Sequence record: MK327931.1
Source of the DNA: Escherichia phage vB_EcoM_G17
Length of the DNA: 64,000 bases
Strand: one strand, 5' to 3'
Each line of letters begins with the position of its first letter. Position 1 is the first letter of the stretch. Under the pieces are notes generated by a model, which saw only the letters and a list, made by a program, of their open reading frames with translations, searched no databases and was not told where the DNA came from. This document shows positions 1 to 64,000 of this stretch, one piece after another. The position numbers and the translations under genes are program-made.

Positions 1-242
1 GTCGAAATACCTATGGTCTATGTGGTGTTAATCAAACATCCGAAAATATACTAACTTTCACCGAAATGGTTCTTGATGCATTAGAAGGAAGACGAATTTC
101 AGGCTTCGTAAATGATAATTTCTATTCAATGATAATTGATGAAAATAACAATTTGTATATGTGTGGTTTGGCTGAACTTGGAAATGTTCCAGTCAATAGA
201 GTTCCAACAAGGGTTCCTGATTCACTTCTACCGTGGAAATAA
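1..242 (+). CDS. RCC1-like repeat protein, C-terminal fragment (5' end outside window)
   Basis: Frame open from window edge, ends ...YMCGLAELGNVPVNRVPTRVPDSLLPWK*; same repeat style as downstream paralogues; followed by the conserved cassette. Confidence 0.5.
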   Translation, partial: RNTYGLCGVNQTSENILTFTEMVLDALEGRRISGFVNDNFYSMIIDENNNLYMCGLAELGNVPVNRVPTRVPDSLLPWK

Positions 243-248
243 TATAAT

Positions 249-312
249 GCCAGTATCAAGTACTGGCATTTCTTTTTGATTAAATATAGTATAACAAATA
301 AAGGAGGGAATT
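249..312 (+). promoter_or_regulatory. Conserved intergenic cassette: terminator hairpin + T-tract + AT-rich promoter-like box + RBS
   Basis: gccagta-TCAAG-tactggc hairpin, atttctttttg, taaatatagtataa, aaggaggg 4 nt before ATG; near-identical copies at 1508, 2317 and 7084. Confidence 0.6.
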
Positions 313-1500
313 ATGTTACCTTTTGCAAGAATGATGAATTATGGGAATATTGCCCCAGTACCACTTCAAATTAAGAAAATAATCCCAACTGATTTAGATG
401 TTGTGGTTCTGTATACGGATGGTCAACTATATGCACGTGGGAATAATAGTTTTGGGAAATTCGGTAGAGGAAACAACACTGCATTAAAATCATGGACATT
501 AATTAGAGAAAACGTTAACGATTGCTGGCTTACACAAGGAACTTTATTAGTAAAAGACAATGACTCAAATTATTATTACTGTGGATATGGTAGTCATATT
601 GGTTTATCAACTAGTACTACTACGTTTTTAAGTTATAACCAATATATTCAAAATTTGTACACACAAAGTTCAAGTACTTCAATTAAACAGATGTATGGAG
701 GTACTACGTGGTTTACTTTCTTAATGGACAATAATACAATATGGAGTACAGGGTGGAACAGTGCTAGACAATTCGCCGATGGAACGGGAACTACTTATGA
801 AATAACCGATGGTTCATTTGTAAAAGCGGTCACACCTAATGTTGATATTGCACAAATACAGTCAACAAATAACTGTGTATTGTTGTTTGATAAACAAAAT
901 AATTTATATATTGGTGGTGTTACATCCGGTATAAGTTCCGCGACTACATGGACTTCATATAATCAATATACTTTATATCAACCAAATACAACATACACAA
1001 AAACGTTACAATACACAGGATGCTCAACTGGTGCAGTAAGTGCTTTAGTTGAAAATCCAAATACAGGAGCACGTCAGTTCCTTGTCGGTGGGTTAGCTAA
1101 TAATGGGGCATGGGGAAATAACACTACATCTAGCTCTGTTAATGGAGTTTTAGGAAATAACAGTACGACGTTACCACCCGGTACTTTGTATTCAATTCAT
1201 ACTGGATACCCACCACAATCTAGTATACTAATTACGAGTACTGGTGTATATGCAACTGGTTTAAATGCCAGTAGTTATGCTGGTTCATTGGGTATTGGTA
1301 CTAGTGCAACTGTTGGTAAGTTTACTGCATGTCCAATGCCTACACAAATAACATATTCTATGTATGATAAAATAAAAATATATAGAGGTTCATATCGTAC
1401 ATTTCTAACTGATATGAAAAATATATATTCAACCGGAACTTATGATGATGGTGGTCCTAGTACAACTAGATATGTACTAGATACACCCCGACAATTATAA
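313..1500 (+). CDS. RCC1-like repeat protein with conserved N-terminal leader MLPFARMMNYGNI
   Basis: 395 aa; repeats of type YARGNNSFGKFGRGNNT / GWNSARQFADGTG; S/T/N/G-rich; strong RBS. Confidence 0.85.
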   Translation: MLPFARMMNYGNIAPVPLQIKKIIPTDLDVVVLYTDGQLYARGNNSFGKFGRGNNTALKSWTLIRENVNDCWLTQGTLLVKDNDSNYYYCGYGSHIGLSTSTTTFLSYNQYIQNLYTQSSSTSIKQMYGGTTWFTFLMDNNTIWSTGWNSARQFADGTGTTYEITDGSFVKAVTPNVDIAQIQSTNNCVLLFDKQNNLYIGGVTSGISSATTWTSYNQYTLYQPNTTYTKTLQYTGCSTGAVSALVENPNTGARQFLVGGLANNGAWGNNTTSSSVNGVLGNNSTTLPPGTLYSIHTGYPPQSSILITSTGVYATGLNASSYAGSLGIGTSATVGKFTACPMPTQITYSMYDKIKIYRGSYRTFLTDMKNIYSTGTYDDGGPSTTRYVLDTPRQL

Positions 1501-1507
1501 TATAATA

Positions 1508-1572
1508 GCCAGTACTCAGTACTGGCTTTTCTTTTTGTATTAAATATATTATAATGAATAAAGGAGGGAATT
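1508..1572 (+). promoter_or_regulatory. Conserved intergenic cassette (copy 2)
   Basis: gccagtact-cag-tactggc hairpin + ttttctttttg + taaatatattataatg + aaggaggg. Confidence 0.6.
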
Positions 1573-2310
1573 ATGTTACCTTTTGGAAGAATGATTAAGT
1601 ACGGGAATGAAATTGAATATAAGCCACATGGTGAACAATTAATCACGACAATAGGAACAACACAATTTACAGTTCCTGCTGGCGTTACCGAAATATCAGT
1701 ATGTGTTATTTCGCCGGGTGGTCAACGTGGTGCTGGCGGCGGCTTATCGTGGCGTAATAATATTCCGGTTACTAGTGGTGAGTACTTAAGTGTTTCTCTT
1801 ACGCATACCAACACTACTACACCAGTTGAAAACGGTTTATATCGTGGAACTGAAAAACTATGTGTTAGCTTCACTGGTGCATATACGGTTGGTGGACTAG
1901 GTGGAAAAGCTGCTAACGCTATTAATGATGGTGGTGGTAATGGTGGCAATACTGGTGTAAGTGGTGGTGCAGTCATTGGTGGTGGTGCTGGTGGCTACAC
2001 AGGTAAAGGTGGTAACGGAGATGCAATCACTGGTGAAAATGGTGCTGGCGGCGGCGGGGGCGGTGGTACATTCTATAATACCTCGTTCATTGGTACGGGT
2101 GGTGGTACTGGTATCATTGTTCAAGGTGCTAATGGTATTGGTGGTAGCTACGGTGGTTCATATAATGGTGGTGCTGGTAGTGGTGGTGCTGGTAAGATGT
2201 ATGGTGGTGGTGGTAGTATATGGGATAATTCTTCTTATACGGCTGCTGGTGGTGGTGCTGTGCGAATAATATGGGGAAATGGGAGATATTATCCTAACAA
2301 TTCAGTATAA
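1573..2310 (+). CDS. Glycine-rich protein carrying the same N-terminal leader (MLPFGRMIKYGNE)
   Basis: 245 aa; leader then TVPAGVTEISVCVISPGG and long GGxGG tracts; internal ORFs on both strands are low-complexity artefacts. Confidence 0.8.
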   Translation: MLPFGRMIKYGNEIEYKPHGEQLITTIGTTQFTVPAGVTEISVCVISPGGQRGAGGGLSWRNNIPVTSGEYLSVSLTHTNTTTPVENGLYRGTEKLCVSFTGAYTVGGLGGKAANAINDGGGNGGNTGVSGGAVIGGGAGGYTGKGGNGDAITGENGAGGGGGGGTFYNTSFIGTGGGTGIIVQGANGIGGSYGGSYNGGAGSGGAGKMYGGGGSIWDNSSYTAAGGGAVRIIWGNGRYYPNNSV

Positions 2311-2316
2311 AATATA

Positions 2317-2380
2317 GGCCAGTACAGAGTACTGGCTTTTCTTTTTGATTAAATATAGTATAATGAATAAAGGAGGAAAT
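2317..2380 (+). promoter_or_regulatory. Conserved intergenic cassette (copy 3)
   Basis: ggccagtac-aga-gtactggc hairpin + ttttctttttg + taaatatagtataatg + aaggagg. Confidence 0.6.
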
Positions 2381-62592: not shown

Positions 62593-62593
62593 A

Positions 62594-63004
62594 TCAATTC
62601 CCCATTACTAAAGTGTTTTTAATCTCCAACAATTCACTATACATATTCTTCAATTGTAATATATCTTCAAAAGTAATACCACCAAGATCATCAACTAATG
62701 AACGTTGGAATAAAGATTCACTTGTTTGTAATGTATCTAAATCGGTGATTTTTAATAAAGAACTTGGATTAAGTGTTTCGACTAGTAGTATGTTTTTGTA
62801 TGGTACATATGTGATCTTGATGTTCTTTTTATAATTAATCTTATAAAATCGCATAATTGACGATTCATCACTTAGTTGGATAATTGGGTCGTCTTGATCA
62901 TTAGACCACCATACAGTACTAGTCATATGATTGACGTGGTGGTTCAATTCTGATATGTCCAAATCTAAAAAATATTTTAGTTCATTGTGTAAATCTAAAC
63001 TCAT
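62594..63004 (-). CDS. EE-FQ-S family small protein
   Basis: TSESLFQRSLVDDLGGITFEDI. Confidence 0.6.
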   Translation of the reverse strand: MSLDLHNELKYFLDLDISELNHHVNHMTSTVWWSNDQDDPIIQLSDESSIMRFYKINYKKNIKITYVPYKNILLVETLNPSSLLKITDLDTLQTSESLFQRSLVDDLGGITFEDILQLKNMYSELLEIKNTLVMGN

Positions 63005-63059
63005 AAATTTATCCTCAATGCAGCATCATCATGTATTGTAGGATAAACCCACAATAATG

Positions 63060-63455
63060 TCAAGATGTGAAATAATTATACCAGTAATATAGTTCTTTTA
63101 ATTCTTCAGTACTGAACAATACTTCTTCTATTGTAGATTGTTGAAAGTGATATTCATCATTTAGATACATAGAAATATTACTATATACTTTCCTATTGTA
63201 TTGACATAAAAAAGAAGTTTTTTGATTAATGTATTCCGTAAATGTTAATTTATCTAACTCAATATCGAATGATAATTTAATAATATGACTATTATCATTT
63301 ACATACATTAGTTTCTTTGAAAAATGATCAATTGTAATATATTCTTTATGAGAGAACTGAAATATATTATTAAATTTATTACCATTTGTGCTTCTAAATT
63401 TTTCAAGGTAATAAGAAAGTGGTTTAATTATTGAAGTTCCAATATTGTTCTTCAT
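63060..63455 (-). CDS. EE-FQ-S family small protein
   Basis: NDEYHFQQSTIEEVLFSTEEL. Confidence 0.6.
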   Translation of the reverse strand: MKNNIGTSIIKPLSYYLEKFRSTNGNKFNNIFQFSHKEYITIDHFSKKLMYVNDNSHIIKLSFDIELDKLTFTEYINQKTSFLCQYNRKVYSNISMYLNDEYHFQQSTIEEVLFSTEELKELYYWYNYFTS

Positions 63456-63473
63456 ATATCCTCAATTTTAGAT

Positions 63474-63499
63474 AAGAAAAATGCCCCGAAGATCGGGGC
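63474..63499 (-). terminator. rho-independent terminator
   Basis: Minus strand GCCCCGatcttCGGGGC followed by attttt. Confidence 0.6.
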
Positions 63500-63618
63500 A
63501 GTACTAAAATGATTTTGTACCAAAAGGGGAATAAGAACAAAATGAAAATATAATAACGCATCATTATTATGATGTAAGGGAGGAAAGTAACATGATATGT
63601 TAACCATTTCTGGTATAT

Positions 63619-64000
63619 TTATTTATCATTTAATTCTTTAAGTTGGGTTTGTATATCTTTAGTTATATTTCGAATTTTCTTAAAGCAATAAACACTATCG
63701 TCCAATTCGATTTTAAGTTCATGTGTAAATGCATACAGAAGTTCAGCAAATACTAAATCTTGACGCATCCAGTTTCCATCTTTATATAAAGTCATTACAC
63801 AATATGGGCATTCACTATTAGAAGTTTGCTTTCCAATAAAAACACTTTGAATTGATTCATGCTTAAAGCCAATAAAACTTTCATTTATTTTTTTAATTTC
63901 AGTACTGATATCGAATTTAGCACTGGTGTTGATTGCAAAAATTTTATTCCCACTTTCATCAGTATTGATATTGAGTTCAATATCACTACCTAGTTTACGT
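63619..64000 (-). CDS. hypothetical protein, C-terminal part (5' end outside window)
   Basis: Minus-strand frame open to window edge, ends ...KDIQTQLKELNDK*. Confidence 0.5.
   Translation of the reverse strand, partial: RKLGSDIELNINTDESGNKIFAINTSAKFDISTEIKKINESFIGFKHESIQSVFIGKQTSNSECPYCVMTLYKDGNWMRQDLVFAELLYAFTHELKIELDDSVYCFKKIRNITKDIQTQLKELNDK

Follow-up and report, generated by a model that had tools for sequence, protein, structure and literature searches.

The AGTACT palindrome is highly iterated in RaK2-like jumbo phage genomes

Cyanobacteria have been known for about 30 years to carry highly iterated palindromes, which, to our knowledge, have been assigned no agreed function. HIP1 (GCGATCGC), the subject of work by Robinson in 1995, Delaye in 2011, and Elhai in 2015, is reportedly a short palindrome that far exceeds its compositional expectation across whole genomes, lies in all frames of coding sequence as well as in noncoding DNA, is limited to certain lineages with close relatives that lack it, is conserved in position somewhat above background, and is suspected of a tie to orphan DNA methyltransferases. 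We analyzed a 64,000-bp stretch of Escherichia phage vB_EcoM_G17 DNA (MK327931.1; here called the window), in which an earlier note had described the palindrome AGTACT as several-fold overrepresented, and found that AGTACT resembles HIP1 in these respects, the tie to methyltransferases being suggestive only. The window was placed by megablast on bases 47778 to 111777 of Escherichia phage Sharanji (OR545507.1; 350,079 bp), a RaK2-like jumbo myovirus of the genus Asteriusvirus, with window base 1 at record base 47778, and all genome-wide counts given below are those of Sharanji. In that genome AGTACT occurs 903 times versus 100 expected, which is approximately 2.6 copies per kb and 9 times chance. 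It differs from HIP1 in being found in a virus rather than in cells, in having an AT-rich 6-bp core with graded 12-bp symmetry whereas HIP1 is a GC-rich 8-mer, in coexisting with an extreme purging of other palindromes, in having a part of its copies wired into promoters, and in that no cognate methyltransferase has been identified for it, the phage proteins gp542 and gp251 being candidates only. The motif is not mentioned in the paper describing Sharanji, and we found no description of it in the literature searched on AGTACT or CAGTACTG in phages or on promoters or methylomes of Asteriusvirus or Alcyoneusvirus.

Several other described systems share some of these features. Like the uptake signal sequences of Haemophilus and the DNA uptake sequences of Neisseria, AGTACT is present at about one copy per kb or more in both genic and intergenic DNA, forms terminator stems as inverted pairs, and consists of many dispensable copies that are collectively maintained, possibly by drive. 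The uptake sequences, however, are nonpalindromic 9- to 12-mers read by an uptake receptor during transformation, and we know of no analogous selective-transmission step for this phage. Chi (GCTGGTGG) is likewise an overrepresented oligomer, one that lets an enzyme (RecBCD) tell its own DNA from foreign DNA, but it is asymmetric, orientation dependent, and host defined, whereas AGTACT is palindromic, defined by a phage clade, and rare in a sample of host DNA. AGTACT is also a type II recognition palindrome (ScaI/Eco255I), and restriction-site avoidance operates on other palindromes in these same genomes and on AGTACT itself in phages PA5oct and muut; the difference is that the sign is reversed here, with a 9-fold enrichment instead of a depletion. 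The promoter/stem-loop (PeSL) cassettes of T4-like phages, said to have been described by Arbiol and colleagues in 2010, resemble the repeated early promoter and terminator modules, some with AGTACT, that flank small early genes in this phage. PeSL cassettes are 50- to 70-bp intergenic repeats. A hexamer that has spread by point substitution across coding sequence is not explained by them. Finally, the SlmA-binding sequence (SBS) GTGAGTACTCAC has the same central hexamer and 12-bp dyad architecture, but its flanks are GTR/YAC versus TTC/GAA in the phage, which has no SBS-like sites.

The window (33.5% G+C) contained 180 copies of AGTACT by exact k-mer count, whereas base composition predicts 21.8 copies, a first-order Markov model 18.9, and a second-order one 35, and AGTACT had the highest z-score among 6-mers under Markov orders 0 to 2. 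The overrepresentation claimed in the earlier note was thus borne out (180 versus 19 to 22). No other palindrome was comparable: AGTACT was the sole enriched 6-bp palindrome in the window, at 9.5 times expectation, and the runner-up, GAATTC, reached 1.6 times. The extended form CAGTACTG was present 40 times, while in 100 dinucleotide-preserving shuffles it averaged 0.81 copies and never exceeded 3, and exact TCAGTACTGA was present nine times, at 15966, 22491, 44614, 44649, 46572, 47801, 48261, 63106, and 63899. Local counts reported previously were reproduced for 47221 to 48780 (9 copies) and 40621 to 41460 (none), with 6 rather than 5 copies in 18000 to 19560; several of the previously listed positions of the 8- to 10-mer were 1 to 10 nt off, and those at 13054, 16357, and 48671 were only 8- or 9-mers. 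Across the Sharanji genome there were 199 copies of CAGTACTG (4.4 expected), 47 of TCAGTACTGA, and 14 of TTCAGTACTGAA, and all 10-kb bins were enriched for AGTACT. Its density ranged from 1 to 2.5 copies per kb in replication and structural genes to more than 6 per kb at 20 to 40 kb, a region of tiny early genes and noncoding DNA, and was overall approximately 40 times that in a 50-kb sample of Escherichia coli K-12, which contained 3 copies versus 4.8 expected from its composition. The Sharanji 30- to 40-kb bin held 64 copies of AGTACT and 21 of CAGTACTG. At record positions 34.8 to 40.5 kb, outside the window, lies a gene-poor stretch of approximately 5.7 kb with four short annotated genes that is dense in the long palindrome form, for example GATTCAGTACTGAATAATAGTACTGAATGAT and a repeated ATGATTCAGTACTGA, and that may be a regulatory or replication region.

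Within the window, 154 of the 180 copies were in coding sequence, 25 were intergenic, and 1 straddled a gene end, corresponding to 2.7 copies per kb of coding DNA and 3.9 per kb of noncoding DNA. As the earlier note had stated, the motif therefore lies inside genes, and it does so in all three frames: 70 coding copies were read as AGT, ACT, 37 as xAG, TAC, Txx, and 47 as xxA, GTA, CTx. Copies were uniform along gene length and their number per gene was Poisson-like. When codons were shuffled synonymously within genes, only 45.4 ± 5.7 coding copies were obtained, with a maximum of 64 in 500 shuffles, and permutation of codon order gave 23.6 ± 4.6, compared to the 153 observed. Codon-pair counts agreed with this. 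Serine-threonine dipeptides numbered 129 versus 84 expected, and 69 of these were encoded as AGT-ACT versus 20 expected; valine-leucine dipeptides numbered 159 versus 111 expected; xAG-TAC-Txx occurred 37 times versus 3 expected, with only 4 cases of xAG-TAT-Txx among 756 TAT codons; and the codon preceding GTA-CTN ended in A in 69% of cases versus 31% overall. The pressure acts on the DNA, not on the protein, and it distorts dipeptide frequencies. An explanation by codon or amino acid usage, which the earlier note had entertained for the coding copies, was ruled out by the two codon nulls and the codon-pair counts, so that neither of the outcomes named in that note as refuting the enrichment was obtained. 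The S-T-E-E and Q-Y-stop strings that it had singled out were present and of marginal weight, with two genes each, and an end-of-gene effect was rejected on the same grounds and by the uniform placement along genes. A serine tRNA with anticodon ACT is encoded at window positions 47693 to 47784 on the minus strand and is cognate to the AGU that opens the AGT-ACT reading; AGT is the commonest serine codon here (430 of 1,316). The same tRNA is also found in a nonenriched Vibrio relative, and it may be unrelated to the motif.

Contrary to the suggestion in the earlier note, the copies were not clumped. In 1-kb bins of the window the variance-to-mean ratio was 0.79, with 1 empty bin versus 3.8 expected, and both these bins and genome-wide gaps showed spacing slightly more even than random. 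Compared to a local-density null, gaps longer than 800 bp numbered 100 versus 117, gaps of 100 to 200 bp numbered 137 versus 163, and gaps of 200 to 800 bp were commoner than expected. Pairs exactly 20 bp apart were found 10 times genome-wide versus 2.6 expected under the same null.

The extended consensus of the site is TTC-AGTACT-GAA, with dyad-symmetric flanks. Genome-wide, 47% of sites had C at position -1 whereas 6% had G there, and T was favored at -2 and -3. Inside TC......GA flanks AGTACT was 106 times above expectation, with no other core near this value, and inside C......G flanks variants were tolerated mainly at hexamer positions 1 and 6. Most one-mismatch neighbors of AGTACT were mildly enriched (1.2 to 2.2 times), and only AGGACT/AGTCCT was depleted (0.54). 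The long form TCAGTACTGA was concentrated in noncoding DNA, with 5 of 9 copies in the noncoding 10% of the window. Beyond 12 bp the flanks of different copies were unrelated, and relatives differed by point substitutions within aligned open reading frames. A mobile or interspersed repeat, such as the repetitive extragenic palindromes, miniature inverted-repeat transposable elements, or PeSL-like units, was rejected, as the copies shared no longer unit and only the promoter and terminator subsets were paralogous cassettes.

We then compared AGTACT counts among phages. The hexamer was enriched 6 to 20 times in EJP2, GAP32, RaK2 (two loci), XaC1, and the metagenomic contigs L032, L033, and L039. 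The counts were 108 versus 14.5 expected in E. coli phage EJP2, 82 versus 12 in Cronobacter phage GAP32, 80 versus 10 in Klebsiella phage RaK2, with 99 copies in its second 41-kb locus, and 121 versus 16.5 in XaC1; three metagenomic RaK2-like contigs had 63 versus 5.9, 82 versus 4.3, and 49 versus 2.5. Structural and replication loci remote from early promoters were also enriched (71 versus 12 in 41 kb). The flank preference was common to EJP2, GAP32, and RaK2 and weak in XaC1 (C at -1 in 29%), and among the metagenomic relatives it was stronger in two of three and weak in L032. The most extreme case was L039 (SRR22973663_12731), with 82 AGTACT and 49 CAGTACTG in 18 kb (4.5 and 2.7 per kb), approximately 19 times expectation, and 77% of its sites with C at -1; lineages of the clade differ in how strong the flank preference is. 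Conversely, AGTACT was not enriched in the complete genome of Vibrio phage 2.275.O (81 versus 107 expected), whose major capsid protein is 79% identical, in Atu_ph07 (3 versus 5), in the T4-like phage PP01 (7 versus 7.7), or in the RaK2-related contig L034. The excess is lineage specific and confined to the RaK2-like clade, with nearest outgroups that lack it. In two other phages the hexamer was missing: an approximately 41-kb locus of PA5oct (65850 to 107025) had 0 copies versus 14 expected, making AGTACT by far its most strongly avoided palindrome, and a locus of similar length in the unrelated coliphage muut (27734 to 68708) had 0 versus 12, alongside other purged palindromes. These absences indicate that AGTACT behaves there as an ordinary restriction target, with the sign reversed in the RaK2-like clade, and that phages of Pseudomonas and E. 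coli are under genuine selection from ScaI/Eco255I-type restriction.

Other palindromes were examined in the same genomes. GCGC was absent from the window (26 expected) and from the Sharanji genome (179 expected). Twenty-six 6-bp palindromes with a summed expectation of 89 were absent from the window, and at least 22 were absent from the genome, among them CCATGG (47 expected), TGGCCA (43), GCATGC (39), and CTGCAG (36); all of those listed as absent genome-wide have at least four G or C residues. GCGC was zero in every AGTACT-enriched relative examined and in none of the nonenriched ones, and the signature of high AGTACT and zero GCGC picked out RaK2-like contigs in metagenomes. Vibrio phage 2.275.O showed no palindrome avoidance (GCGC, 561 versus 493 expected) and carries a gene set for 7-deazaguanine (queuosine-type) synthesis, which suggests a DNA-protection strategy other than that of the AGTACT-rich clade.

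Conservation of the sites was measured against that of other hexamers. In codon alignments of 13 core genes, 33 to 50% of Sharanji sites were also AGTACT in EJP2, GAP32, or RaK2, compared to 18 to 20% for random hexamers, and 23% were common to XaC1, compared to 12%. Between Sharanji and JP4 (97.4% identity) 94% of sites were conserved versus 89% of other hexamers, and between Sharanji and UE-S1 (89% identity) 71% versus 58%, or 72% versus 57% when only coding sites were counted (z of approximately 3). In the UE-S1 comparison, per-base divergence was 0.071 inside sites versus approximately 0.096 in their flanks. With UE-S1 as the outgroup, 8 gains and 3 losses were assigned to the Sharanji and JP4 branches, and most of the recent gains were either transversions of A to T, by which AGAACT became AGTACT, or changes of several bases. 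These patterns of conservation, gain, and loss indicate that the copies are individually dispensable and collectively maintained, and that they are made by any mutational route that the protein tolerates.

The intergenic copies could be sorted into recognizable classes, and a small part of all copies is found in transcription signals, as the earlier note had proposed. In seven sigma-70-type promoters of the window, AGTACT(G) immediately precedes the -10 hexamer or lies across or abuts the -35 hexamer, at a fixed distance to these elements, and GCCAGTAC...GTACTGGC stems form the best terminator-like hairpins, which follow the genes of an RCC1-like array. These features and one intergenic pair are as follows.

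16351 to 16378, minus strand: consensus sigma-70-type promoter TTGACA-N9-AGTACTG-TATAAT, with the palindrome as the last six spacer nucleotides but one.
26969 to 26996, minus strand: promoter TTGACAAACGTTCGT-AGTACT-GTATAAT, in the register of that at 16351 and with an unrelated spacer.
31279 to 31306, minus strand: promoter TTGACAGAAGATATC-AGTACT-GTATAAT, in the register of that at 16351.
30930 to 30958, minus strand: promoter with AGTACT overlapping the -35 hexamer (TTGACAGTACTG...TATAAT).
47795 to 47828, minus strand: promoter upstream of the tRNA cluster with two AGTACT copies exactly 20 bp apart, one abutting the -35 (AGTAC-TTGACT) and the other abutting the -10 (AGTACTGATAAAAT).
48255 to 48283, minus strand: promoter TTGACTAAATAGTTC-AGTACT-GATATAAT, paralogous to those at 47795 and 48665.
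48665 to 48692, minus strand: promoter TTGACTAAATAGTTC-AGTACT-GTATAAT.
246 to 270, plus strand: terminator-like hairpin AATGCCAGTA-TCA-AGTACTGGCATT and T-run, after an RCC1-like gene.
1507 to 1527, plus strand: terminator-like hairpin AGCCAGTACT-C-AGTACTGGCT and T-run, with a stem of two overlapping copies.
2316 to 2338, plus strand: terminator-like hairpin AGGCCAGTAC-AGA-GTACTGGCTT and T-run.
8210 to 8233, plus strand: hairpin ATCCAGTACT-TAAT-AGTACTGGAT and T-run, between two minus-strand genes.
44614 to 44660, no strand assigned: two full 10-mers TCAGTACTGA, 35 bp apart, intergenic.

In the rest of the window, terminators are built without AGTACT. Genome-wide there are approximately 20 promoters of the form (TTGACA-N9-)AGTACTGTATAAT and approximately 19 of the form AGTAC-TTGCA-N17-GTATAAT, and several promoters have both copies, 20 bp apart; the spacers are otherwise unrelated. 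Promoters and terminators together account for less than 10% of copies, and with 154 of 180 copies inside genes, a promoter element is not a general explanation of the motif, even though the fixed distance to the -35 and -10 is present. Among the four roles that the earlier note had listed with no preference (promoter element, regulator site, modification or recognition site, and recombination hotspot), that of a recognition or modification site fits best: symmetric flanks, confinement to one clade, and purging by other phages together favor a site recognized or modified on double-stranded DNA.

The reading that we prefer, to which we give odds of roughly one in three, is that AGTACT (TTC-AGTACT-GAA) is a lineage-specific highly iterated palindrome of RaK2-like jumbo phages and the counterpart of the cyanobacterial palindromes, protected and probably modified, recognized in its double-stranded form by a symmetric protein of the phage, and kept by weak selection on many copies. 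In this scheme the virion genome would carry a chemical protection at the site, for which methylation is the simplest candidate. Unprotected phages such as PA5oct and muut purge the hexamer, as they do other restriction sites, and without protection the 900 ScaI/Eco255I-type targets would expose the phage to severe harm. A symmetric, presumably dimeric protein encoded by the phage would read the site as a mark of phage DNA, and weak positive selection on many sites would maintain the excess. One subset would be built into early promoters flanking the -35 and -10, 20 bp apart, where its binding or modification state could modulate early transcription, and another would form terminator stems. 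A fuller version, which we regard as rather doubtful, is that AGTACT is an epigenetic self-mark: an enzyme of the clade would modify it, rendering the 900 restriction targets harmless, and a dimeric phage protein would tell phage DNA from host DNA by it, in view of the 40-fold difference in density. Through the copies that flank the -35 and -10, early-promoter activity could also be coupled to the state of modification or replication of the genome. If so, the motif would stand in, at the level of sequence, for the hypermodified bases by which T4-type phages recognize their own DNA.

A number of results weigh against the preferred reading. C at -1 and G at +1 were mutually independent (56, 71, and 28 of 153), so cooperative recognition of the whole palindrome is not required. 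Constraint at the level of the site was modest, with only approximately 26% fewer substitutions; intergenic and promoter copies were no better conserved than other intergenic hexamers (10 of 15 versus 0.64), and several promoter-spacer copies were lost in close relatives. The molecular drive discussed below predicts nearly the same patterns of conservation, gain over loss, and frame independence. No modification data for the motif were found in the literature searched, and no reader protein was identified among the approximately 590 phage proteins, for which no systematic search for DNA-binding domains was made. The link to a methyltransferase is also weak. Homologues of gp542 that are 44 to 48% identical are carried by L034 (RaK2 related, 48% identical) and L035, both nonenriched, and further homologues are found across the nonenriched contigs L034 to L038, and characterized PF05869 enzymes are known to methylate GATC.

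Two DNA methyltransferases were found in Sharanji by Pfam and PHROGs, a Dam-type enzyme, gp542 (PF05869), and a C5 enzyme, gp251, whose gene lies in the window.

59405 to 60265, minus strand: gp251, C5-cytosine DNA methyltransferase (PF00145).

Among the matches listed, gp542 orthologues at a conserved position were present in the AGTACT-rich cultured lineages, GAP32 not being among these matches, and they were also present in three enriched metagenomic contigs. No homologue of either protein was detectable in Vibrio phage 2.275.O, which has no annotated DNA methyltransferase either. As a gp251 homologue with 51% identity is encoded by muut, whose locus has no AGTACT, and gp542 homologues occur in L034 and L035, the link to methylation drawn from the co-occurrence of these genes with the trait is suggestive only. 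We rejected gp251 as the site-protecting enzyme because of its muut homologue. For gp542, the orthologues in the enriched lineages and their absence from Vibrio phage 2.275.O stand against the homologues in L034 to L038, and it is at most a candidate for the cause. phiKp_21, which had appeared to be an independent carrier of gp542, proved to be a RaK2-like contig, and a related-locus search with gp542 gave only phage 121Q. The protein gp548, called a methyltransferase in the Sharanji paper, has no methyltransferase domain, motifs, or Protein Data Bank relative. The PA5oct paper does not mention a methyltransferase, and the RaK2 paper states, as data not shown, a general resistance to methylation-sensitive enzymes and CpG methylation. 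In UE-S1, the orthologue of the 286-amino-acid C5 methyltransferase is annotated within a 626-amino-acid open reading frame (record 50728 to 52608), so that some relatives may have a fusion of this enzyme with a further domain.

Of the other explanations, the one closest to these results is a nonadaptive molecular drive, in which a clade-specific repair or recombination process resolves mismatches or heteroduplexes toward AGTACT, the motif builds up wherever the coding sequence permits and has no function of its own, and the promoter and terminator copies are incidental. Such a drive has been proposed for HIP1 through methylation-linked very-short-patch repair. It would account for copies in every frame and functional class, for the up to 6 copies per kb in small, weakly constrained early genes versus 1 to 2 in core genes, for gains outnumbering losses, for sites that persist while the neighboring sequence diverges, for promoter copies that are not specially conserved, and for the co-occurrence of the trait with two phage DNA methyltransferases missing from the nonenriched Vibrio relative. 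It is disfavored only by the transversion-rich gains, which do not have the T:G-to-C:G signature of deamination repair, by the even spacing, and by the need to tolerate 900 restriction targets, which drive alone leaves unexplained. The deamination-type very-short-patch version was rejected on account of these gains and of the neighbors of AGTACT, of which none was symmetrically depleted except AGGACT/AGTCCT, with no such depletion of the C>T neighbors, and no Vsr-like enzyme was identified in a search that was not exhaustive. We consider a drive of some kind a tentative alternative, improbable on balance. The remaining explanations are progressively less likely. In the next, AGTACT is an unmodified operator of an early-transcription regulator, such that approximately 40 promoter copies are functional and bound by a phage repressor or activator dimer while the coding copies are weak decoys or a by-product. 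The fixed register of the approximately 20 copies before (G)TATAAT and the approximately 19 at the -35, the promoters with both copies 20 bp apart, and the concentration of the full 10-mer in noncoding DNA all agree with such an operator, but promoter copies are less than 5% of the 903, the coding excess is itself 3 to 6 times above codon-aware nulls, structural and replication genes far from early promoters are enriched, JP4 and UE-S1 have lost promoter copies no more slowly or quickly than is ordinary, and the tolerance of a restriction target is again unexplained, so that we find this explanation unlikely.

We consider it very unlikely that the excess is a by-product of restriction-site purging, either with AGTACT as a safe palindrome that replaces forbidden GCGC and more than 20 GC-rich ones or as what methylated GCGC/AGCGCT decays into when CG changes to TA on the two strands. 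AGTACT richness does coincide with zero GCGC in all enriched loci and in no nonenriched ones among those examined, and the change from AGCGCT to AGTACT requires two transitions of the kind expected from 5-methylcytosine deamination. However, the co-occurrence with GCGC may reflect a single shared ancestry, the genome would be expected to contain only 179 GCGC and 16 AGCGCT compared to an excess of approximately 800 AGTACT and 1,250 GTAC, the intermediates AGCACT/AGTGCT are only 1.7 times enriched, muut purges many palindromes with AGTACT among them, and the few polarized events already point to varied precursors rather than to GCGC-containing words. Hardly any weight can be given to the hijacking of a host factor, in which phage DNA would activate the E. 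coli nucleoid-occlusion protein SlmA and block division. Vibrio species have SlmA, and the Vibrio relative is not enriched; no SlmA homologue is encoded by the phage. The phage core is the same as that of the SlmA-binding sequence GTGAGTACTCAC (PMC3020112), and Sharanji-infected cells filament, with DNA spread throughout the cell (PMC11895373), but SlmA needs G1, T2, and a purine at position 3 flanking AGYRCT (PMC3020112) where the phage prefers T, T, and C. No phage site matches GTRAGYRCTYAC, G at -1 is the most disfavored base (6%), and GTG/GTA flanks are depleted 2.6 times, and these incompatible flanks, with the missing homologue and SBS-like sites, largely refute a role for SlmA. A compositional or codon-usage artefact with no specific signal can be dismissed for practical purposes. 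Its one point is that an order-4 Markov model of the window gives 142 expected versus 180 seen, an excess of only 1.26 times, and this excess shrinks because the 5-mers AGTAC and GTACT, which are part of that model, are themselves enriched. The base-composition, dinucleotide, synonymous-shuffle, and codon-permutation nulls all fail by 14 to 37 standard deviations (z of 34 for composition, 37 for dinucleotides, and 19 and 28 for the two codon nulls), and PP01, with a similar G+C content, shows no excess.

A phage clade with a HIP-like phenomenon would be far more tractable than the cyanobacteria, with a 350-kb genome, growth on E. coli K-12, dozens of sequenced relatives at 60 to 99% identity, and clear negative controls in sister lineages that are neutral for AGTACT or purge it. 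The motif demonstrates that phage genomes can carry strong positive oligonucleotide signals, beyond restriction avoidance, and it bears on the marking or protection of DNA in jumbo phages that have neither a nucleus nor hypermodified bases, on motif-based prediction of hosts and lineages, and on the engineering of these phages, in which synonymous recoding would erase the signal.

The remaining content of the window is the end of the RCC1-like gene array on the plus strand followed by approximately 130 small minus-strand genes, mostly hypothetical, and it includes genes for a sigma-70-like factor, a pyrimidine-dimer glycosylase, and seven tRNAs in addition to the C5 methyltransferase. The array (positions 1 to 7283, plus strand) consists of tandem paralogous genes of approximately 380 codons each, one of them with an RCC1-repeat annotation, and continues upstream in the record from 40.8 kb; after each gene come a GCCAGTAC...GTACTGGC terminator, almost unchanged from one gene to the next, and a conserved leader with TATAAT. 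These genes may be the source of the enriched 6-mers TGGTGG/GGTGGT (33 versus 4 expected). Chi is itself overrepresented, with 5 copies in the window versus approximately 0.3 expected (1987 and 2245 on the plus strand; 4520, 16848, and 33450 as CCACCAGC) and 29 in the Sharanji genome versus approximately 2.5, 10 of them on the top strand and 19 on the bottom strand, where they cluster at record positions 17 to 36 kb. A second repeat family, (A)AGGGTTGACTTCGGTCAGCC(C/T)TTTTT(G)...TATAAT, is found on the minus strand at 11898, 13312, 14594, 19089, 20174, 21783, and 25208. It forms a hairpin that resembles a terminator, closed by a TTCG loop and followed by a T-run. The 5' arm of the hairpin holds a TTGACT -35 hexamer, and in several copies TATAAT is 18 bp downstream of TTGACT, an arrangement that indicates an overlapping terminator/promoter cassette between small genes.

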